Shown here piece after piece: positions 34,181 through 44,809 of a stretch of DNA of 64,000 nt. Each line of letters opens with the position of its first letter. Within the stretch, counting starts at the first letter, position 1. The position numbers were made by a program, and so were the translations under genes. This stretch comes from an uncultured Acidobacteriota bacterium (GTDB taxonomy: Bacteria > Acidobacteriota > Blastocatellia > RBC074), in NCBI GenBank assembly GCA_963794955.1, contig CAWCGF010000003.1, positions 125,985-189,984 of the forward strand. The letters run 5' to 3'. Below the pieces are notes generated by a model. The model saw only the letters and a list, made by a program, of their open reading frames with translations. It made no database searches and was not told where the DNA came from.

Positions 34181-34265
34181 TTTCAGAAGTTTGACTTGCT
34201 CATCTCTATCTGTCAGAGGCATACTCCGTTTTCTCTTATCTTTTATAATTTACCCGGAGAAACCT

Positions 34266-35987
34266 ATGCAGAAACGACTTGTTTTGCTCTTCCTTGCTTT
34301 TACTTCTTTGTTGCAGGCTTGTAGTCCGCCGCCACAGACTGCAACAACCAGTCCTACGCCCGCTCCCCTACCAATGGCCAACATGCCGGCTGAACTCAAG
34401 CCTGCGCTTGATAGCCTCAGCGCGGACGAGCTGCTGCAACATATCAAGACACTGGCGTCGGACGAATACGAAGGTCGCGCACCGGGTACGAAAGGCGAAG
34501 AGCTAACGGCCAATTACCTCACTGAACAATTCAAGCAGCTTGGCCTCAAGCCTGGTAATCCTGATGGCACGTACATTCAGAAAGTCCCGCTCGTTGGTTA
34601 CACGCCGGAACCCTCAGTCTCCTTCAACGTCGGCGGCAAGAAGTTGGATTTAGCGACGGAAGAGTATTTGATGATTGCTGGTCGTTACGTCCCGATGACC
34701 AAGATTGACAGCTCGGATGTTGTGTTCGTCGGCTATGGTGTCGTCGCGCCGGAATATGGTTGGGACGATTTCAAGGATGTGAACGTCAAAGGCAAAACGA
34801 TTGTGATGTTGGTCAACGACCCCCAGGTTCCTGATCCGGGCGATGCGAAAAAACTGGATGACAAACTCTTCAAGGGCAAAGCGATGACGTATTACGGACG
34901 CTGGACGTACAAATACGAAATTGCGGCGGAGAAAGGCGCGGCGGCAGCGATCATAGTGCATGAAACCGCGACCGCAGGCTACCCGTTTGAAGCGTTGCAA
35001 AGCATTCGACAGGAAAACTTTGGCCTCAAAGGATCGCGACAAAATCGTGCCGCTGTCGAATCGTGGATCACGGTAGATGCCGCGAAAAAGCTGTTTGCTT
35101 CCGCCGGGCAAGACTACGATGCATTGAAAAAGGCGGCGCTCAGCAAAGACTTCAAACCCGTCACGCTCAATGCCAAAGCCAACTTCCAAATCAAAACCAC
35201 GCTGCGCGAAGTAGATTCCAAAAACGTCATCGCCAAGCTCGAAGGCTCTGATCCGAAGCTCAAAGACGAATACGTGATTTACACCGCGCATTGGGATCAC
35301 ATGGGACGCAACGAAAAGTTGTCGGGCGATCAAATCTTCAATGGCGCGATTGATAACGCGTCAGGTGTGGCCTGTTTGCTCGAATGGGCAAAGGCGTTCA
35401 CGAAACTCCCGACGCCGCCGCAGCGTTCGATTCTGTTTTTGGCTGTGACCGCCGAAGAGAAAGGCTTGCTCGGTGCCAAGTATTACGCCGAACATCCGTT
35501 GTATCCGCTCGACAAAACGCTGGCGAACATCAATATGGATGGCATCAATCAATGGGGGCGCACGAAAGACATCACGGTCGTCGGGCTAGGCAATTCGACG
35601 CTGGACGATGTGTTAGCCGAAGCCTGTAAGACGCAAAATCGCGTTATCGTGCCTGATTCTGAACCGGAGAAAGGCTACTTCTATCGCTCGGATCATTTTG
35701 AATTCGCCAAGCAAGGCGTGCCTGCGCTCGACCCGGATGGCGGGAATGATTACATTGGCAAGCCCGCGGACTACGGCCAGAAGACGCGGGATGAATACAC
35801 CGAAAAGGACTACCACAAGGTTTCTGATGAAGTGAAACCAAATTGGGATTTGTCAGGCGCAGTCGAGGATTTGCAATTGCTGCTGCTGGTCGGCTACAAC
35901 GTTGCCAACGGCAACAAATGGCCGGAATGGAAACCCGGCACTGAATTCAAAGCCAAACGCGAAGCGATGCTGAAGAAAGTAAAGTAA
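34266..35987 (+). CDS. M28 family peptidase (aminopeptidase with PA domain), lipoprotein
   Basis: The lipoprotein signal is [13 protein letters not shown]. The M28 zinc-ligand regions are HWDHMG, DNASG, EE and DG. The start at MQKRLVLLF was chosen inside the longer ORF. Confidence 0.8.
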
Positions 35988-36121: not shown

Positions 36122-39100
36122 CTAGAACCTCGTCCCCCTTGGCTGCGCCAGCATTACTTGCGTGGTGCCGCCTGTTTCATCTGCCCACATGGTAGCCAGA
36201 TTTCCATTCCAATCTGTCACTGTAATAGCGAAGAAAAGCTGCACGCCAATGTTGTTCGAGGCATTGATGAACGACGAGAAATTCGCGCCGCCATCGGATG
36301 ACGTAACAAAGATTACGTCTCGGCCTCCCGGAAAGATTAACCCTGGGCCTAAGCCACCCGCAGAAATCCCAATGTTGCCTCGGCGATCAACGCCGATGTT
36401 CGGCACGAAAGAACGGGTGCCAAGCGCCATCGTGCGGGTGACATTGCGGGCCGCAGAAAAGCTCGTGCCATTGTTGGTCGAACGGGAGAAGTAGATTTCC
36501 TGTTCATTGCGGGTGAGGTCGCGGCGCGAGAATGCGACGTTGATATTCCCCGCGCCATCTATCGCCAGGGAAGGGCTGTCGGCTACCACGTTCGTTGAAG
36601 TACTCAAAATGCCGGAGAGATTCAAGGGGGTCGAGAAGGTCGTTCCGTTGGTTGAGCGAGTAAAGAAAATATCTCTTTGCCCCGAACTATTAAACCCATC
36701 GAAGGCAATGCTGACGGCTCCGGCGGTATCAACCGCGATGCTCGGATTAATTCCTTGAATCGTGGTAGGTGATTTTGACGTGACATTGATGGGTGCCGAA
36801 ATAGTGGCTCCGCCGTCGGTTGAGCGCAGAAAGAAGACTTGCGCCCCGGTCTCGACAGCCACGTTAATTGAACCATTCCTGCTGACAGCCAAATCATTGC
36901 TGATGAAGGCCACGCTGGTACTCGTATTTCGGGTCACGTTAATTGCTGCCGAAAAAGTTTGCCCACCATCGGTGGAGCGCCTCATAAAGATATTCTCCGG
37001 CACACCTGCCTCGCCCCAGCGAATCCAACTGATAGTGATATTTCCCGTGTCGTCCACGCCGATGCGGGCATCTTCTAATCTAATGTTAGGATTGCTTACG
37101 CTGGCAATCGGCGTCGTTTGCACCACGGAGCCCTTGCGGAAGCGGGTGTAGACCAAACCGCCGAAGGTGCCAAGCCCCCGCCGCGTATCAACTCCCGTCA
37201 CTACGTGCAAATCGTTTTGCGCGTCAGGTGCAGCATCAGGAACGTAGTGCGATTCGCGCAAACTGGTGAGCGCTTGCGGCGCTTGTGCGAGTTCAAAAGG
37301 TGAAGACACATTCAACCGGATAGTCGTCCAATGCTCGACTCCCCCGATGGTCACTTTGGCGGTAATTGGGTAGGTGCCTGGCGCTGTATTGCTATTGGCT
37401 GTCACCCGCAGATTCAGCGTTTGCGCATCCGTCCGACTAAAGCTGTAACTTAACCCTTCCGTGCCCTCAACCGTGGAGACGGCTGCCGCCGTAGGATTGG
37501 CAGGCAAGGCGAACGCGCTATCGAACGCATCTATTTTCAGATGAAAGTCCGTAGCAAATCCGGCCTGTACGTTTTGTGCCGGTTCGAGCGGGAACAGGTT
37601 GAATTCTTCGTTGTTCGTGGCGGCATCTTCCGGTTTGATGATATGTGCGTAGACATCCGGGTTGAGGCCATTGCGTTCATCGCCCCAGCCCAGCACAAAA
37701 CCATTATCGCCCGCGACGATTTGGTTGTAATCGCCGTGATAGCCGGCACGCGTGCCAAACGGCGTGGGGGCCAACAGCCAATTGCCAGGCGTAATGCGAT
37801 GCCCTGGCGTGAAGCTACGCCCACCATCGTTCGAGGTGGTGATGTAAATGTCGTGCAGCACGTTGTTGATGGGGTCGTTGCGGCGATCATAGTACATCAC
37901 GCCCAGCACACCATTCGACGTCACCGCTGCGGCAGGCATAAATTGATCGGTATCGAACGGATCATCTGCCGCAATAACGGGGGCGCTCCACGTCGCGCCG
38001 CCGTTGGTGGAGCGGACGACGACAACATCACTTTCATCGCGGCGCGCCACCAACGCGGTCGGCTTGACGTCGGTCGTGATGTACACCGTCCCGCGATATG
38101 GGCTATTGGAGGTGTCCACCGTAATGCTGGGGAAGGGGGGTAATTCAAAACTGCCGTTGTAATGTCGCCCAAAGCGCAGTGAATCATCCCTCAGTGCGGT
38201 CACAGGCGCGCTGAAAGTTTCTCCGCCATCCATGGACTTGATGACTGCGAGTCCTGGAATGCGACTGTCGAAATAGGTGACATAAAGTTCCCCATTCGGC
38301 CCCACTGCGGGCATCGAGCCTTGCGTGAATCCCGCCGCACTGTGCGCCACGCCAATCGCTTTAGGGGTGGCCCAGTTCTTCCCGCCATCCGTAGATTTGA
38401 CAAAGTAAAGACTGGGTGTGACCTGATTGGAAAAGCGCGTCCAGGTGATGTAAATGCTGCCGCGAGCTGGGCTGTTGGAGTTGTCAACGGTCATCCATGG
38501 TTTGTCGTGACTGTTGCTGGGATTCGTGATGGTAGGAATCGCATTCACAGGCGTTGACCAGCGCGAACCGCCATCGGTAGATTTAGTGACCGCCAGGAAC
38601 CAGTTCCCCAAACTATTGAAGCCCATTTGGAGAAAGTAAAACACGCCGCCCGGGCCAGCCGCCATCACTGGATCGCCAATCCCACTGCCAAAGGCTGCGA
38701 TGGGCGGTACGGTTTGCTTCCAGGTTTTGCCGCCGTCCTTGGAATAACTGATACCCGATCCATAACCAGCGATGCTTGCATCGTTGTACCCGACCACGAT
38801 GTTATTGCCTGCCGCCGCCACGCTCACCTCGCTCTGCAAGCCGGAACGAAGGTCAAAATCAGGATCATTGACTTGTACATTGCCGCTGCCTAAAACTCGT
38901 TCTGGTGCCGCTTCGAGTTTGGCTTTAGCCCCTTCCCGGTCATCTGTGGCTGCTTCTGCTCGGGCGGCTGACGAACTGCCTTTGGTGAAGAGGATGTCTT
39001 CCGTCAAGCCATACTTCCGTAACAGCATGGATTGTGCGTTGCCCGAAAGCTGATCAAAGGCTGGATCGTAGAGCAACCACAGATCACCGTCATTGCCATA

Positions 39101-39292
39101 GCCGGATTGCAGTGCCGGCACATCCTCGGCATTCGTGGTGCGCAGTAAATTGTTTGCATATTGGAGTGCCCTTTTCTGCACGGGCGTTGGTTCATCCGCT
39201 TGCCCATAGGCCACATTCGTGGCAACGGGCAAACTTAAGATGGGCGCGATAATCAATAGGTAGCTGAGTAAATAACGAGAGATCGTTTTCAT
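36122..39292 (-). CDS. Large secreted BNR/Asp-box repeat protein (sialidase/sortilin-like beta-propellers)
   Basis: A signal peptide is followed by at least 9 Asp-box motifs (S-x-D-x-G-x-T-W/F), for example YSKDGGKTW, STDGGSRWS, STDGGKNWA, SMDGGETFS, STNGGATWS, SNDGGRSFT, STDGGQTFS, STDGGATIS and SSDGGANFS. Confidence 0.8.
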   Translation of the reverse strand: MKTISRYLLSYLLIIAPILSLPVATNVAYGQADEPTPVQKRALQYANNLLRTTNAEDVPALQSGYGNDGDLWLLYDPAFDQLSGNAQSMLLRKYGLTEDILFTKGSSSAARAEAATDDREGAKAKLEAAPERVLGSGNVQVNDPDFDLRSGLQSEVSVAAAGNNIVVGYNDASIAGYGSGISYSKDGGKTWKQTVPPIAAFGSGIGDPVMAAGPGGVFYFLQMGFNSLGNWFLAVTKSTDGGSRWSTPVNAIPTITNPSNSHDKPWMTVDNSNSPARGSIYITWTRFSNQVTPSLYFVKSTDGGKNWATPKAIGVAHSAAGFTQGSMPAVGPNGELYVTYFDSRIPGLAVIKSMDGGETFSAPVTALRDDSLRFGRHYNGSFELPPFPSITVDTSNSPYRGTVYITTDVKPTALVARRDESDVVVVRSTNGGATWSAPVIAADDPFDTDQFMPAAAVTSNGVLGVMYYDRRNDPINNVLHDIYITTSNDGGRSFTPGHRITPGNWLLAPTPFGTRAGYHGDYNQIVAGDNGFVLGWGDERNGLNPDVYAHIIKPEDAATNNEEFNLFPLEPAQNVQAGFATDFHLKIDAFDSAFALPANPTAAAVSTVEGTEGLSYSFSRTDAQTLNLRVTANSNTAPGTYPITAKVTIGGVEHWTTIRLNVSSPFELAQAPQALTSLRESHYVPDAAPDAQNDLHVVTGVDTRRGLGTFGGLVYTRFRKGSVVQTTPIASVSNPNIRLEDARIGVDDTGNITISWIRWGEAGVPENIFMRRSTDGGQTFSAAINVTRNTSTSVAFISNDLAVSRNGSINVAVETGAQVFFLRSTDGGATISAPINVTSKSPTTIQGINPSIAVDTAGAVSIAFDGFNSSGQRDIFFTRSTNGTTFSTPLNLSGILSTSTNVVADSPSLAIDGAGNINVAFSRRDLTRNEQEIYFSRSTNNGTSFSAARNVTRTMALGTRSFVPNIGVDRRGNIGISAGGLGPGLIFPGGRDVIFVTSSDGGANFSSFINASNNIGVQLFFAITVTDWNGNLATMWADETGGTTQVMLAQPRGTRF

Positions 39293-39735
39293 ATTTGACT
39301 CCTTCATTAAGATGGAAACGCAACTGGAATTTTGCGCTTCGAGAATTGCGGTGCGAGATCGCTGCCGGATGATCTCTTGCGAATGGAACGCAGGCACGAT
39401 TTGCTTGCGTTGGCTGAAAGCACACGGTGTGAGTTATGGCTGAAGCGCATCGCCTATCAACAGCACGACGAGTTCGGCTGTCGGATGAGACCAATACCCA
39501 CAGGAATGCAAGTACAACTCTTTTGATGAGGATGTCGTGAGGGGAGGAACCACTTGCATTGATTGCGCCAGGCACAGCCAAAATCCAGCGGGCGATTTTC
39601 GCCGGTAGACTTTCAATGCCACGATAGTTGTGGCCACAAACTCTCGTTGTTCCTGAAATAACACGGTCGGCTGACGCGCGTATAATAGTCCCGCGCTAAC
39701 CACAATTCAAGGGAGGGCTGAGACGAATTGACAGG

Positions 39736-40866
39736 TTATTTGATAGTCAGTGTTTCACGCGCTTGCCGCACCAGACGTTCGGCTTCTGCTGCACTTGTGG
39801 CCAAGGCCGTGAGGTGTCCCATCTTCCGGCCTTTGCGCGGTGCAAGCTTGCCGTAAAGATGAACTTTGACGTTGGGAAACGCACAGGCTGCGGCCCAATT
39901 CGGTTCGCCCGCCTGCCACAAATCGCCCAGTAAATTTGCCATCGCTGCGGGGCACAATAATTCTGTCGAGCCAAGTGGCAAGCCGCATACTGCCCGCAGT
40001 TGTTGCTCGAATTGACTTGTCACGCAAGCATCAAAGGTGAAATGACCGGAATTATGTGGACGGGGCGCGGTTTCGTTGATGATCAATTGGCCTTCGCGCG
40101 TGAGGAAGAATTCAACGCACATCACGCCGACGACGTCCAACGCTTCCAGCACGCCGCGCGTAATCTCTACGGCTTCTTTCACTACTTCTGGCGCAATCGG
40201 AGCAGGCGCAACCGTAACGTCGAGGATGTGATTGGAATGCTCATTGGCGACTACGCCATAATGCACGAACGCCCCGTCTATACTCCGCGCGGCGACAACG
40301 GAGACTTCGCGCTCAAAATTGATAAAGGCTTCAAGAACGGCTTCGTGGTTGCCGACCGCATTGAGAGCCTCCTGCGCTTGTGCGGGCGAGGTGATTTTAC
40401 TTTGGCCTTTGCCATCATAACCAAAGCCCGCTGTTTTCAGCACCGCCGGGCAGCCGATTTCTTCCAGCGCTACGAGCAAGTCTTCTAACGAATTGATGCG
40501 TTTGAAAGGCGCTACGGGAAAGCCGTTGTTGGCCAGGAAGGTCTTTTCGCGCAGCCGATGTTGCGCGGTGTGCAAAACGTGACCGCCCGGACGGACGGGC
40601 GCAAATTCAGAAGCCGCTTCGACCGCAGCAGAGGACACGTTTTCAAACTCAAACGTGACGACGCTGACGTTGCGGGCAAACGCGCGCACCGCGTCCAGAT
40701 CATCGTACGAAGCAATAATTTCTTCGTCGGCAATTTGCCCGGTCGGCGTGTCCTGATCGGGCGAAAATGTATGCACGCGATAGCCCATGCGTCGCGCTGC
40801 AATAGCAAACATGCGACCGAGTTGGCCGCTCCCAAGAACGCCGATAGTGGAGCCGGGAAGAATCAT
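39736..40866 (-). CDS. purK: N5-carboxyaminoimidazole ribonucleotide synthase
   Basis: An ATP-grasp fold is present, with an N-terminal GSGQLGRM and motifs conserved across PurK. Confidence 0.9.
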   Translation of the reverse strand: MILPGSTIGVLGSGQLGRMFAIAARRMGYRVHTFSPDQDTPTGQIADEEIIASYDDLDAVRAFARNVSVVTFEFENVSSAAVEAASEFAPVRPGGHVLHTAQHRLREKTFLANNGFPVAPFKRINSLEDLLVALEEIGCPAVLKTAGFGYDGKGQSKITSPAQAQEALNAVGNHEAVLEAFINFEREVSVVAARSIDGAFVHYGVVANEHSNHILDVTVAPAPIAPEVVKEAVEITRGVLEALDVVGVMCVEFFLTREGQLIINETAPRPHNSGHFTFDACVTSQFEQQLRAVCGLPLGSTELLCPAAMANLLGDLWQAGEPNWAAACAFPNVKVHLYGKLAPRKGRKMGHLTALATSAAEAERLVRQARETLTIK

Positions 40867-41447
40867 AAAAACATGAAGCGGTAAGAAAAATCATCAACGG
40901 TTAGACTCGAATTTAATAGCGCCGCAGACATCTCAAGCACTGTTAATCGAGCATCTGGGCGACCAAATTCATTAAGCTTATAAAGTTGAATCGTTATAGT
41001 TGCTCTATATTGGTCTTCGGGTGTGGCTTGATAGTTAGGTTTCAATTCGCCTGTTAGGGCATCAAAGAAAAAGTAGCGGTTAAATTCGTATTCGATTTCA
41101 TCCGGCTTAAGCAGCGCTTCATCAAATCTTTTGCCTTTCGCGCTTTGACACCTATCACAACAAGCAAAAAGATTTTCCCACTGATAGACCAAGCACGGGT
41201 ATGATTCTTTCGGACGAAAGTGTTCGATCGTTTCTCTGATCTGCGAACGCATTGGACAACTATCACAAAAAGAGCAGTGCTTCTTGGTCATTACTAGCAA
41301 TAACTCAATCAAGGGTGAATAAACCTTCTTACGCCATTGAAACTCATGTTTTGGGTTTTGCAATCTCTTCTGCTCATATTCTAGTCCCCAGTCTTCCCAG
41401 TTTTGAATAAGAACGGCTGGAGGCTCAGGGCGCTGGAGTTTCATCAT
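40863..41447 (-). CDS. HNH (His-Me finger) endonuclease, PtuB-like (194 aa)
   Basis: Treble-clef cysteines CSFCDSC ... ACCDRC flank H (IEHFRPKE) and N (YQWENL). The gene is low GC. Its stop overlaps the purK start (ATGA), and its start overlaps the ATPase stop (ATGA). Confidence 0.65.
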   Translation of the reverse strand: MMKLQRPEPPAVLIQNWEDWGLEYEQKRLQNPKHEFQWRKKVYSPLIELLLVMTKKHCSFCDSCPMRSQIRETIEHFRPKESYPCLVYQWENLFACCDRCQSAKGKRFDEALLKPDEIEYEFNRYFFFDALTGELKPNYQATPEDQYRATITIQLYKLNEFGRPDARLTVLEMSAALLNSSLTVDDFSYRFMFL

Positions 41448-42751
41448 AGCTCGTAGTTTGTGCCTTTGATTTTATTTATTTGCTTAATCTCAAGAGAAAT
41501 GATGCTAAGTAATTCTTCGCTTTGCTGGGCCAATTTCTTGCCTCGTTGAATGAATTGTTTTTTATTAATAGGTTTGCCCCGTAAGATGTGGTCACGTTGT
41601 TGTTGGAATTTGTCTAGCTCATCTTGTGTCTCGCCGCCAAAAGACTTTTCAATATCAAATACCTCACGCAATACGGAACGATAACTTGCCGAAGATTTTG
41701 ATTCAGTTACTTCGCCAAGATAGGCTTTCCCCTCTTTTATCTTTAGCTCATAGATTGCTGCGCCATCTACGGAATTAACAACAAATGGAGAATGGGTCGT
41801 AAGAAAGATTTGTGCACTGGGAAAAAGCTTTTGCACTGCTGGCAAAATTTTTCGCTGCCAAGCTGGATGTAAATGCACTTCAATCTCATCGAGAAATAGG
41901 ATGAGATTGAGCGGCTCACCATATTCCCAGGGTACTAAATCTAACCTCATTAATAAATCGCCAATCCAGCTAATGGAGGAGCGTAAGCCATCAGGAAGCA
42001 CATCGAAATCAAGTTCGGTATTGTTGGCAAGTAGAACTAACGTAAGCGGAGATGTTTTTAGAGCAAATTCAACTTTATAGCCTGCGATTTCAGAGATGGC
42101 AGTTTCTAATCTGGCAATCAAGGTGGCGAATTTTTCCGCTAGGGGCTGATTACGCTTTTCCTTCTCTAAAGCTCGCTTAGAAATATTATTAGCGATCCAT
42201 TGATTAATAGTAAATGAACTGTTTGCTTCTTTAATAAAATCTAGCGCATCACTGAAAGGGCTGTATTTAATCTCTTGGATTGCATTTACATTTGCAGCTC
42301 GTATTAACCTATATCCAGAATATGCCGCAACAAAAAACTCAGTATGGGGGGGCCAGCTAGCACGCTGACGGTAAGCTTCAATTGAACTGTTGGAACTAAA
42401 CTCGCTCAAGTCAATGGATCTTGTAAGCATTTGTGAGGTTTCCTCAACGGAGTCGTAAACATTTACTTTTACGTCAGCTCCTTCATCAAATACACTGCAA
42501 AGCTTAGGTTGTTTTCTCTCTACATCCAACTTTCGAAATCTTTTTATAAAAGCATTATTAGCGTTAGGATTTGTAAAGTCATCAGCCTTGCTGAAAATGC
42601 TAGCTAGGGCGTGCAGCACTGTGGTCTTCCCACTTCCATTAGGCCCCGTCAGAATATGAATTTCAGCCTTACCGCTTTCTTGTGGCTTAAATTCAAATTC
42701 AACCTCATCAAAGGGCCCAATATCTTTTAGGTAGAGTTTTCGTATGCGCAT
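41444..42751 (-). CDS. ABC-type (AAA_15/AAA_21-like) ATPase, PtuA-like (435 aa)
   Basis: Walker A is LTGPNGSGKTTVL. Walker B/D-loop is LILFLDEIEVHLHP. The H-loop is LTTHSP. A long coiled-coil-like insert lies between Walker A and Walker B. The gene is low GC and starts 8 nt after the purE stop. Confidence 0.7.
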   Translation of the reverse strand: MRIRKLYLKDIGPFDEVEFEFKPQESGKAEIHILTGPNGSGKTTVLHALASIFSKADDFTNPNANNAFIKRFRKLDVERKQPKLCSVFDEGADVKVNVYDSVEETSQMLTRSIDLSEFSSNSSIEAYRQRASWPPHTEFFVAAYSGYRLIRAANVNAIQEIKYSPFSDALDFIKEANSSFTINQWIANNISKRALEKEKRNQPLAEKFATLIARLETAISEIAGYKVEFALKTSPLTLVLLANNTELDFDVLPDGLRSSISWIGDLLMRLDLVPWEYGEPLNLILFLDEIEVHLHPAWQRKILPAVQKLFPSAQIFLTTHSPFVVNSVDGAAIYELKIKEGKAYLGEVTESKSSASYRSVLREVFDIEKSFGGETQDELDKFQQQRDHILRGKPINKKQFIQRGKKLAQQSEELLSIISLEIKQINKIKGTNYEL

Positions 42752-42759
42752 AAGCCAAT

Positions 42760-43257
42760 CTAGCTAAGTGTATCACTTAAAACTTTATTCGTTTGTTCAT
42801 GGCGAAATTGGTTTAGCTTTTCACGCAACTCAGGACGCGTGTTGGAAAGAATGGCTACGGCTAACAATGCCGCATTCGTCGCACCCGCTTGTCCGATAGC
42901 CACTGTGCCGACCGGAATTCCCGCGGGCATTTGCACGATAGACAAGAGCGAATCCAGCCCGCTCAAGGCTTTGCTTTGCACCGGAACACCGAGCACCGGC
43001 ACGGGTGTTTGCGCCGCGACCATGCCGGGCAAATGAGCCGCGCCGCCTGCGCCGGCAATGATGACTTCGAGGCCGCGTGCTTCGGCTTGGGCGGCGAATT
43101 CGGCCAAGCGCAACGGCGTGCGATGCGCGGAAACGATTTTGCATTCGTGCGGCACATCGAATTTGGTCAGCATTTCTGACGCCAGCCTCATCGTTTCCCA
43201 ATCGGATTTGCTGCCCATGATCACAGCGACGAGCGGGTTTTCAGTTTCGGTAGTCAT
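42760..43257 (-). CDS. purE: N5-CAIR mutase
   Basis: The motifs [14 protein letters not shown] and [12 protein letters not shown] are conserved. Confidence 0.9.
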
Positions 43258-43289
43258 CTGAAAGAAACAGGAGATTACGAAACAACGGA

Positions 43290-43375
43290 AAAAATCGAAA
43301 CATCTCGGAAGATGGAAGGCAATCTACATATTTTCTGTTTATTCCATTTATTCCGAGATGTTCCGTAATCTCGTC
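43290..43375 (-). terminator. Long imperfect hairpin with U-tract downstream of icd (minus strand)
   Basis: The minus strand reads GAGATTACGGAACATCTCGGAA-loop-TTCCGAGATGTTTCG followed by ATTTTTTCC. The structure also lies upstream of purE. Confidence 0.45.
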
Positions 43376-43383
43376 TTTGATCT

Positions 43384-44809
43384 CTAAGCGGAATATCCAG
43401 CTTTGCCGTCGAAGTTGTACAGGTTTTCGGTCTTGATGTAATCAAGCCCTGCGCCCGACACGCGATTCAACAGGCTGGCGATTTGTTCGTGCTTGACGTT
43501 GCCTTCGCCCGTGAAGCGGCAGCGCCAGTGATCGGAGCAGAACGTTTCCGGCGAGCCATCCGGCCAGACTTTCGTGCCGCGATTGTTCAGCGTAGCGAGC
43601 TTCAATCCTTCGCCGCTGAGCGCAGAAAGAATCGTGCTCAAATCGTTGGCGGAACCCGCTGTCCAATCCAGGTACACGTCCACACCGACCAGTTCTTTTT
43701 TCTCCGGCGTCGGCGTGCTGATTTGACCGAGCTTCGATAAATCCGCCGCTTTGTATTCTGCCGCTTTGAGCGTTCTCAGGCTTTTGACCGAGACGCGCAA
43801 CAACGGCTTCAGCGAATTCTTTGGTGCCGACTTTTTGTTTGCTCACGCCTTCGGTGTAAATGTCGTAGGTATGAATGCCGTCTTCGAGCGTCTTCATCCA
43901 GGCGTTGTGCGCAAGCGCGGCTACGTCGGGTTGTCCGATGTGAACAAGCATCAGGATTGCGCCGAGGAACAAGCCGGACGGGTTCGCCAAATTTTGCCCG
44001 GCACGCCGTGGAGCCGAGCCGTGAATGGCTTCAAACATCGCTACGTTTTCGCCGATGTTCGCGGAACCAGCGAGGCCAACCGAACCGGCGATTTGCGCGG
44101 CTACGTCAGAAAGTATGTCGCCATACAGATTCGGCATTACGACAACATCAAACGCTTCGGGCGTGTCGGCGAGCTTGGCTGCGCCGATGTCTACGATCCA
44201 GTGATCGGCTTCGATGTCTGGATATTCGGGCGCGATTTCATCAAACACGCGATGGAATAGGCCGTCGGTCTGTTTCATGATGTTGTCTTTCATGAAGCAG
44301 GTGACTTTCTTGCGGTTGTAATTGCGCGCGTACTCAAACGCATAACGCACGATCTTTTCGGAACCGGGACGCGAAATCAGCTTCAGGCACGCTTCGACTT
44401 GTTGCGTTTGGCGATACTCAATGCCCGCGTATGTGTCTTCTTCGTTTTCGCGGACGATGACAACATCCATGCCAGGATGTTTGGTATCAACGAAGGGATG
44501 ATAGGCGACGCACGGGCGGATATTGGCGAATTGTCCGAACGTTTTGCGCACCGTTACGTTCAGTGATTTGTAGCCGCCACCTTGCGGAGTCGTGATCGGC
44601 GCTTTCAAAAACACTTTCGTGCGGCGCAGCGATTCGTACGCTTCCGGCGCAATGCCAGCGGTGTTGCCGGAAAGGTACACTTTCTCACCGATTTCAATGG
44701 TTTCAATGTCAATGCGCGCGCCTGCGGCCTGAATTATATGGAGCGTCGCCGCCATAATTTCCGGGCCGATGCCGTCGCCATGCGCTACGGTAATGGGTAC
44801 GTTTGCCAT
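43384..44809 (-). CDS. icd: NADP-dependent isocitrate dehydrogenase with a C-terminal extension; apparent frameshift near 43790-43810
   Basis: ORF 43442..44809 is a clear dimeric IDH up to ...EFAEAVVARLGQK, then reads as nonsense. ORF 43384..43803 continues in another frame with a plausible C-terminal domain (KAAEYKAADLSKLGQ...DHWRCRFTGEG...). The switch is at an A4 run (caaaag). Confidence 0.75.

Follow-up and report, generated by a model that had tools for sequence, protein, structure and literature searches.

Defence systems are usually described as the cargo of islands, prophages or intergenic hotspots and as carrying promoters of their own. Septu combines an ABC-type ATPase, PtuA, with an HNH nuclease, PtuB, and for its stand-alone form the named references are reportedly Doron et al. 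2018 and the Escherichia coli Septu structures 8EE4, 8EE7, 8EEA and 8SUX of Li et al. 2024. In this study we describe a ptuA-ptuB pair on the minus strand of a 64,000-nucleotide stretch of DNA (hereafter the window) from an uncultured Acidobacteriota bacterium (Blastocatellia; RBC074; GenBank assembly GCA_963794955.1, contig CAWCGF010000003.1, positions 125,985 to 189,984), where the pair is lodged between purE and purK, two genes of de novo purine biosynthesis. The explanation that we consider quite likely is that of a type I Septu system residing in a one-slot purE-purK defence locus, with alleles that are exchanged among lineages and a ptuA gene that was captured anciently.

For E. coli Septu it has been established that the Walker A, Walker B and H-loop motifs of PtuA are needed for defence and that H75 and N91 of PtuB are essential (PMC13096335), while a leucine at the signature position has been reported for stand-alone Septu PtuA (PMC12819146). 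ATP binding is reported to inhibit the Septu PtuAB nuclease (PMC12640716, citing Li 2024; PMC12819146), for which a PtuA6:PtuB2 complex is described (PMC12640716, PMC12819146), and the phenotype is reported to resemble abortive infection (PMC13096335, PMC12640716 and PMC12819146). Over-expression of PtuAB is toxic in E. coli (PMC12640716).

Identity of the ptuA-ptuB pair

Full-length profile matches put the identification of the pair far beyond chance. PtuA (435 aa; 41444..42751, minus strand) matched the PADLOC profile PDLC00281 with an E-value of 3.7e-128, residues 1-430 aligning to profile positions 4-443 of 448, and scored above cut-off for Pfam PF13304 (AAA_21) and PF13175 (AAA_15), while PtuB (194 aa; 40863..41447, minus strand) matched PDLC00351 at 7e-68 over residues 1-193 and TIGR02646 with 53.3 bits (cut-off 52.15). 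In the PDB, sequence searches retrieved only PtuA and PtuB chains and, more weakly, AriA, and the PtuB query retrieved nothing other than PtuB chains. An AlphaFold (AF2) model of PtuA, built from 26 homologues (predicted local distance difference test, pLDDT, 80; predicted template-modelling score, pTM, 0.74), had PtuA chains as all of its top 50 PDB fold matches, and the best template-modelling (TM) scores, at 0.62-0.67, were to the stand-alone E. coli Septu PtuA 8EE4/8EEA (for 8ee4_E, TMq 0.62, TMt 0.67 and a root-mean-square deviation of 5.7).

Translation of ptuA revealed a Walker A motif GPNGSGKTT (aa 36-44, with K42; 42620..42646), a signature-like motif LPDGLR (aa 252-257; 41981..41998) in which leucine stands at the position held by glutamine in retron PtuA, a Walker B/D-loop LFLDEIE (aa 285-291; 41879..41899) and an H-loop THSP (aa 319-322; 41786..41797), all on the minus strand. 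The Walker A, Walker B/D-loop and H-loop motifs, as well as L252, P253, D254 and G255 of the signature, are invariant in the alignment of 26 sequences. The His-Me finger core of PtuB extends from C58 to C100 (41148..41276, minus strand) with the pattern C58-x2-C61 ... H76 ... N92 ... C96-C97-x2-C100, where H76 is encoded at 41220-41222 and N92 at 41172-41174; its IEHFRP and NLF stretches align to retron Ec78 PtuB at H76 and N92, respectively, and these two residues are the equivalents of the essential H75 and N91 of E. coli Septu PtuB (PMC13096335). No Rfam family reached the gathering threshold anywhere in the 64-kb window, and no reverse transcriptase (RT) was found beside the pair. Judged on these sequence features, the ptuA-ptuB pair is an intact stand-alone (type I) Septu system, and its two proteins are assigned, as divergent members, to a separate acidobacterial Septu subfamily represented by PDLC00281 and PDLC00351.

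A first-pass annotation, made from the letters of this DNA, had already read the pair as Septu PtuA/PtuB, a reading on which the defence hidden Markov models, TIGR02646, the PDB sequence matches and the fold search agree. The AAA_21/AAA_15 and TIGR02646 searches that it proposed yielded matches above cut-off for PtuA and PtuB, the Walker A, Walker B/D-loop, H-loop and His-Me finger motifs that it listed were verified by translation, and the four open reading frames, their strand and their junctions (the 8-nt spacer and two ATGA overlaps) coincide exactly with its coordinates. Its naming of purE and purK is firm by TIGR01162 and by NF004676/TIGR01161. A housekeeping ATPase of the RecF/SbcC/SMC type, which it had raised as the identity that would speak against Septu, was considered for PtuA and rejected: RecF scored 26.7 bits against 172 and SbcC 21.4 against 478.5, and as these below-cut-off matches involve only some 25-50 residues of the P-loop, the objection does not apply. 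Neither gene is a frameshifted remnant, ptuA and ptuB both being intact.

Organization of the purE-ptuA-ptuB-purK locus

The minus-strand order was confirmed as purE, an 8-nt spacer, ptuA, an ATGA overlap, ptuB, a second ATGA overlap and purK. PurE (N5-CAIR mutase, 165 aa; 42760..43257, minus strand) matched TIGR01162 at 1.9e-65 and PF00731 at 8.3e-65 and is 83-92% identical to its relatives; it constitutes the upstream flank and one homology arm of the slot, with PurK (N5-CAIR synthetase, 376 aa; 39736..40866, minus strand) as the downstream flank and the other arm. PurK matched NF004676 at 3.9e-137 and also TIGR01161, the E-values for the two models ranging from about 1e-137 to 1e-119. The purE-ptuA spacer, ATTGGCTT (42752..42759, minus strand), is too short to hold a promoter or a terminator, the ptuA stop and ptuB start share the ATGA at 41444..41447 (minus strand), and the ptuB stop and purK start share that at 40863..40866 (minus strand), in which the purK start codon is supplied by the cassette, as determined by comparison with relatives whose site is empty.

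The cassette has a guanine plus cytosine (GC) content of 40.8% (ptuA 40.3%, ptuB 41.7%), whereas purE and purK stand at 56% and the window as a whole at 50.8%. The contrast that the first-pass annotation had noticed by eye, of an AT-rich insert against a GC-rich host, is thereby upheld, but its estimate of less than 40% GC does not hold throughout, as 400-nt windows vary from 37.8 to 43.5%. A promoter and terminator scan of the locus gave counts not above those of shuffled sequence, a search for direct or inverted repeats on either side of the cassette gave only short matches at chance level, and no integrase or transposase was found near it.

Occupied and empty purE-purK junctions

Loci were gathered from the genomic context of the closest PtuA homologues, from a scan of species-representative genomes and from a PurK protein search, and are referred to as L001 to L185, the window itself being WIN. 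The order purE-ptuA-ptuB-purK was present in 15 Blastocatellia loci (the window, L001, L004, L006, L008, L010, L011, L016-L022 and L184), with purE and purK as the immediate neighbours of the pair in all 15. Wherever the contig covers them the junctions are near-identical: 6-9 nt separate the purE stop from ATG-CGN-ATH-CGN-AA in 13/13 readable loci, the ptuA/ptuB junction reads ATGATGAAA, with the ATGA overlap in 13/13 occupied loci examined at that position, and the ptuB/purK junction reads ...TTYATGTTYTT-ATGA. The embedded ptuB alleles all stop at the same codon, while the ends of non-embedded ptuB genes vary. In every occupied lineage the cassette, with a GC fraction of 0.37-0.46, is more AT-rich than its flanks (0.51-0.59), so that no relative with host-like GC at this position, a case that the first-pass annotation had put forward, was encountered. 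A contig labelled as an uncultured Heliobacteriaceae bacterium (L015/L012, CAZWAK010000200.1) also carries the embedded cassette and, in icd, purE and purK, shares 89-96% identity with the Blastocatellia loci; the label is probably wrong.

The comparison of purE-purK synteny among relatives that had been proposed for this locus showed that in empty loci the purE stop overlaps the purK start. Four such loci were identified within the clade (L173, L174, L175 and L185; PurK 85-91% identical), all with a ...GTC-GTGA-... junction in which the TGA of purE overlaps the GTG of purK, and in which PurK has four extra N-terminal residues. From this comparison it follows that the cassette lies between the purE stop and approximately codon 5 of purK and that it gives purK its ATG. 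In the PurK tree empty loci are sister to occupied ones, L174 to L021 with a bootstrap of 100, L175 to L010 with 96 and L173 to L017 with 94, and L174 and L021 share purK stretches of up to 100% identity while differing in occupancy. The PurK N-terminus was employed as a proxy, with MI[LF]PG denoting an occupied and M-x-x-Q-P-ILPG an empty junction, and was correct in 2/2 blind tests; applied to 32 close PurK clusters it returned 13 of the occupied type, 16 of the empty type and 3 truncated gene calls. About half of the lineages of the clade are empty and the others are occupied.

Beyond the clade, 74 outgroup loci (PurK 58-75% identical) were informative, of which 58 have purE and purK adjacent, and 33 of those 58 show an NTGA overlap; the overlap of the purE stop with the purK start is the ancestral state of the junction. 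A PurK scan of the metagenome collection returned outgroups of at most 75% identity and no in-clade empty site, and a scan of viral contigs for the cassette yielded relatives of at most 35% identity only. Within the clade Septu alleles were the only defence genes at the purE-purK junction, other kinds not being met there, and a literature search for defence genes at this position produced no relevant report.

Other inserts were observed between purE and purK at 10 of the 74 informative distant loci (L125:729-1581, L170:3379-4001, L106:3428-4001, L133:2358-4001 and L120:949-4001 included). They comprise co-oriented toxin-antitoxin (TA) pairs, UPF0175 with DUF3368 and Unstab_antitox with ParE, a weak HicB-like open reading frame, a TonB_C gene accompanied by an AlkD-like DNA-alkylation-repair gene, an opposite-strand gene for a 936-aa repeat protein and unknown open reading frames, and most are lower in GC than their flanks.

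Allele exchange, age and selection

Divergence of the cassette is uncoupled from divergence of the host. Across 13 lineages PurK showed a Spearman rho of -0.02 with PtuA and of 0.06 with PtuB, PtuA and PtuB were only weakly coupled to one another (0.39), and the PtuA of the window is 48-82% identical to that of the 14 other lineages, cassette alleles overall ranging from 47 to 85%. The sister hosts L001, L004 and L006, with PurK at 91-96% identity, have PtuA proteins that are only 61-71% and PtuB proteins that are 47-83% identical, whereas the window and L001, being distant hosts (PurK 79%), possess the most similar cassette (PtuA 82%, PtuB 80%). Synonymous divergence (dS) of the cassette amounts to between 1.4 and infinity where that of the flanks is 0.44-0.78, the closest allele pair being saturated also, and it is this saturation beside low flank values that indicates that the alleles are older than the host splits.

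Along the alignment of L001 with L006, identity drops from about 90% to 36-66% in the cassette and returns to 93-96% from the first bases of purK, while between L004 and L010 identity is 78-94% over the last (3') third of ptuA, the entire ptuB gene and approximately 150 nt of purK, and 60-75% over the rest of purK. Sliding-window identities reveal that the first ~150 nt of purK move together with the cassette in some exchanges. Such breakpoints inside ptuA and at the 5' end of purK indicate that alleles move by homologous recombination. The flanks are themselves mosaic: purK of L174 and L021 is 92.5% identical (windows up to 100%) and purE only 78.7%, and the first ~135-180 nt of purK follow the cassette allele and not the remaining purK, as is also the case for L001 against the window, from which it appears that recombination tracts reach into both housekeeping genes. 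In neighbour-joining trees with 200 bootstrap replicates the embedded PtuA alleles were monophyletic relative to 68 other homologues in 200/200 bootstraps, which indicates that ptuA was captured once, long ago, and that its alleles have since diversified and been shuffled within the slot.

Apart from one hypervariable segment of PtuA, both genes are under purifying selection, the ratio of non-synonymous to synonymous divergence (omega) being 0.02-0.19 for ptuA and 0.04-0.12 for ptuB, and the catalytic motifs are conserved across the embedded alleles. The exception comprises PtuA aa 53-141 (42329..42595, minus strand), where 15-aa smoothed pairwise identity falls below 0.45 among 12 embedded alleles, omega is 0.22-0.55 as compared to 0.03-0.10 for the remainder, and the pLDDT of the model is lowest. 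This segment is exchanged independently of the remainder of PtuA: L010 and L018 are 82% identical outside it and 31% inside, while L018 and L021 are 73% identical outside and 76% inside. Its sequence behaviour suggests that the segment is a candidate phage-sensing or specificity module engaged in an arms race.

Sister cassettes at other junctions

In the sister family Pyrinomonadaceae, cassettes of the same subfamily sit between a gene for a circularly permuted ATP-grasp protein and an acyl-CoA carboxyltransferase gene (540 aa), with -4 or -1 overlaps to one or both neighbours (L023-L068, for example L060:3647-8565 and L062:3646-7713). At least 5 of these loci have a ptuA start that overlaps the stop of the gene upstream, and at least 10 have a ptuB stop that overlaps the start of the gene downstream; in L062 the coupled downstream gene belongs to an ABC transporter operon and encodes a modA-like substrate-binding protein. 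None of the 67 other cassette loci had purE or purK within 5 kb. Homologous cassettes in such unrelated contexts are more AT-rich than their flanks in 57 of 67 cases (mean difference -0.077), and their low GC is consequently uninformative as to the time of arrival.

Flanking genes and the icd-purE leader

The cassette has icd, a BNR-repeat protein gene, an M28 peptidase gene and a two-component system as its neighbours; PADLOC returned nothing relevant for six neighbouring proteins, and the locus is not a defence island. Upstream of purE the icd-purE leader (43258-43383, minus strand) contains a long hairpin followed by a U-run (43286..43372, minus strand) that matches no Rfam family and is a probable icd terminator or an attenuator upstream of purE: a near-perfect hairpin runs from 43370 to 43293 and is followed by UUUUUU, and an outer pairing of GAGAUUACGGAACA with UGUUUCGUAAUCUC ends just before the purE ATG. 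The leader has no obvious room for a purE promoter. Its design is shared by L010 and L016, while other long hairpins occupy the corresponding place in L011 and L017. No credible riboswitch was found upstream of purE, either with Rfam E-values of up to 10 over 43150-43550 or at the gathering threshold over the whole window.

The icd gene is split across two frames (43384-44809, minus strand) with a break near 43770-43800, which probably represents an assembly frameshift or a pseudogene; the open reading frame at 43442-44809 holds the Iso_dh domain followed by an Arg-rich out-of-frame tail, that at 43384-43803 holds Isocitrate_DH_C_bact, and relatives encode a single icd product of 474 aa. Synteny is lost directly downstream of purK (36122-39397, minus strand), where the window and L011 have the BNR-repeat protein of about 1060-1090 aa, while most relatives have at that position a Peptidase_S8 protein of about 960-980 aa and then an M28 peptidase, located in the window at 34191-35987.

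Discussion

The junctions of this locus leave no room for a promoter or a terminator, and co-transcription with purE and purK is accordingly the simplest arrangement; co-transcription of the cassette with purE and purK is, on the layout of the sequence, most likely. It is also most likely, given the 8-nt spacer and the two ATGA overlaps, that ptuA, ptuB and purK are translated by coupling, and as the cassette supplies the start codon of purK, translation of purK probably now depends on translation through ptuB. By analogy with characterized Septu systems PtuAB would function in defence: oligomers of PtuA would hold PtuB, ATP binding would keep the PtuB nuclease off, and a phage cue would release the nuclease, which would then halt the phage by nicking DNA or cleaving tRNA, with an arrest of growth similar to abortive infection. 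The alleles would be swapped among lineages with purE, purK and the conserved ends of the cassette serving as homology arms.

The first-pass annotation regarded the cassette as a horizontally acquired module and remarked on its AT-richness. A recent, one-off insertion private to this genome would account for the dip in GC to about 40% beside flanks of 56%, but we hold it to be exceedingly improbable: the same arrangement and junctions recur in 14 other lineages, at least 15 lineages in all, with PtuA at 48-82% identity, even the closest pair of alleles is dS-saturated and the alleles predate the host splits, while AT-richness relative to the flanks characterizes the subfamily at large, being found in 57 of 67 loci elsewhere. 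The reverse proposal, that the pair was domesticated in an ancestor as part of the purEK operon and has been passed on vertically, with a housekeeping role in purine metabolism in place of defence, draws on the conserved position and junctions, the strong purifying selection and the lack of mobile-element hallmarks. It is contradicted by the four equally close relatives that have no cassette and keep the ancestral purE/purK overlap, by the empty type of about half of the PurK clusters of the clade, by a cassette phylogeny that is uncoupled from that of the host, by the full-length match of the pair to Septu in defence models and by the occurrence of the same subfamily at non-purine junctions, and is thus very unlikely. 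A third proposal sees in the pair the effectors of a type I-A retron (type II Septu) with its RT and non-coding RNA (ncRNA) elsewhere, and it is indeed with PtuA and PtuB of retrons Ec83 and Ec78 that the PDB sequence and fold searches gave their lowest E-values, just as the top NCBIfam matches are the retron PtuA and PtuB models NF041760 and NF041761. The latter models nevertheless score far short of their equivalog thresholds (127 of 500 bits and 65.7 of 150 bits); PtuA measures 435 aa and retron PtuA 542-552 aa, and as the alignment to the retron chains begins only at approximately residue 60, their N-terminal extension is lacking; the signature leucine is as in stand-alone Septu, and stand-alone E. 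coli PtuA gives the highest TM-scores; and there is neither an RT nor an Rfam family at the gathering threshold in the window, with purE and purK as neighbours in 15/15 occupied loci, so that the chance of a retron origin is close to nil.

Two further explanations are compatible with the type I Septu reading and concern the reason for its location. Adaptive metabolic coupling would have pur-operon expression high when purines or ATP are low, raising PtuAB at the moment when its inhibition by ATP is weakest, and would make of Septu a trigger sensitized to purines or ATP; it has in its favour the reported ATP inhibition (PMC12640716, citing Li 2024; PMC12819146), the linkage of the cassette to a gene of de novo purine synthesis on either side and the persistence of this arrangement through long divergence. 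The region upstream of purE, however, yielded neither a purine-responsive riboswitch nor another regulator, sister cassettes show the same overlaps at the ATP-grasp/carboxyltransferase and modA-like junctions, purE and purK are absent within 5 kb of 67 other loci, and the TA pairs and AlkD-like gene at purE-purK in other Acidobacteria point to a permissive site, for which reasons we think this explanation distinctly unlikely. The use of a non-purine core junction with the same overlaps and the TA pairs at purE-purK in other Acidobacteria weaken the purine-specific rationale, and with it the suggestion of the first-pass annotation that expression of the module could be tied to purine demand. 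Better supported is the view that small selfish or defence modules are tolerated at stop/start overlaps within core operons in constitutive use and are hard to lose from such sites; purine coupling is possible as an added benefit. Selfish anchoring, whereby the cassette would persist mainly because its imprecise loss is costly, as deletions, frameshifts or nonsense mutations within this translational relay would impair the expression of PurE or PurK, with defence secondary, is consistent with the supply of the purK ATG by the cassette, the common terminal codon of all embedded ptuB alleles, empty sites that are the intact ancestral allele and bear no deletion scars, TA modules at the same junction in outgroups and the toxicity of over-expressed PtuAB in E. 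coli (PMC12640716). Strong purifying selection on the catalytic motifs together with a shuffled hypervariable segment fits a defence gene in use, whereas a hitch-hiker would decay, and selfish anchoring is therefore somewhat unlikely as the main cause. More speculatively, the elements of both explanations may be combined in a promoter-less, hitch-hiking Septu lineage that would insert precisely at stop/start-overlap junctions of core operons (purE-purK in Blastocatellia, ATP-grasp/carboxyltransferase or modA in Pyrinomonadaceae), borrow their transcription and re-initiation, render the essential gene downstream dependent on translation through the cassette and so be anchored by polarity, with the amount of a nuclease that ATP inhibits following purine status in the purEK slot and phage-driven balancing selection keeping a long-lived, recombining polymorphism; we put this forward as a conjecture that is rather unlikely to hold in its entirety.

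A number of observations weigh against the type I Septu reading, or against parts of it. PtuA is only about 20% identical to characterized E. coli PtuA. As regards expression, there is no clear Shine-Dalgarno sequence at any of the four starts, which in itself does not prove coupling, ATGA overlaps are frequent elsewhere in the 64-kb window, and sigma-70-like matches within the AT-rich ptuA and ptuB make internal promoters possible. All genomes are metagenome-assembled genomes or metagenome contigs, so that ascertainment affects the frequencies of occupancy, and most PurK clusters were classified by proxy. Monophyly of embedded PtuB was recovered in just 15/200 bootstraps, the protein being too short and divergent, so that repeated import of a part of the cassette is possible. 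Finally, omega in the hypervariable segment of PtuA is below 1, with dS saturated, and owing to this saturation positive selection on the segment is not demonstrable.

The type I Septu reading implies that a toxic ATPase-nuclease pair has been spliced to the nucleotide into a coupling junction of an operon of an essential pathway, where it has remained through extensive divergence of the hosts as a highly polymorphic locus with empty and many occupied alleles, and this style of embedding recurs at a second junction in Pyrinomonadaceae. The locus would thus be a natural example of a defence gene that is expressed and retained without mobile-element machinery. The combination of the same flanks, different alleles and one hypervariable PtuA segment offers a clean system in which to map Septu specificity, and the locus permits a concrete test of the idea of an ATP-inhibited Septu wired to purine metabolism. 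For annotators the lesson is that recent acquisition should not be read from low GC within an operon.

Comparison with known systems

The context of this pair is unusual and conserved, and it extends the known ideas of core-gene-flanked hotspots and flank recombination without overturning them. The pair resembles stand-alone Septu systems, Septu EcB88 (PMC13096335) among them, in its operon of ptuA followed by ptuB, in the Walker A, Walker B and H-loop motifs and the signature leucine of its ABC-type ATPase, in a TIGR02646-type HNH nuclease with H76/N92 corresponding to H75/N91, and in similar protein sizes of 435 and 194 aa; it differs from them in the PtuA identity of about 20%, and in that it is chained inside a core biosynthetic operon and lies in neither a defence island nor a mobile element. 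Retrons of type I-A (Ec78/Eco7 and Ec83/Eco4) possess a homologous ATPase and HNH nuclease and gave the best PDB sequence E-values, whereas the locus described here has no RT, ncRNA or msDNA, its PtuA is devoid of the N-terminal extension and the equivalog models score far below cut-off. OLD, Gabija GajA and PARIS AriA have the ABC-type ATPase core in common with PtuA, as is seen in the AriA and AAA_21 matches, but these matches are weaker (6.9e-23 for AriA as compared to 3.7e-128 for PtuA), and the nuclease in the present case is a separate HNH protein and not a Toprim domain. The cDHS hotspots of Pseudomonas aeruginosa (PMC10250203) likewise occupy a fixed site between core genes, with variable content and turnover by recombination of the flanks. 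At the purE-purK slot, by contrast, the site is a single codon-overlap junction within an operon, the content within the clade is one type of system in the form of allelic variants, and the insert, which has no space for a promoter, recreates the very coupling that it interrupts.

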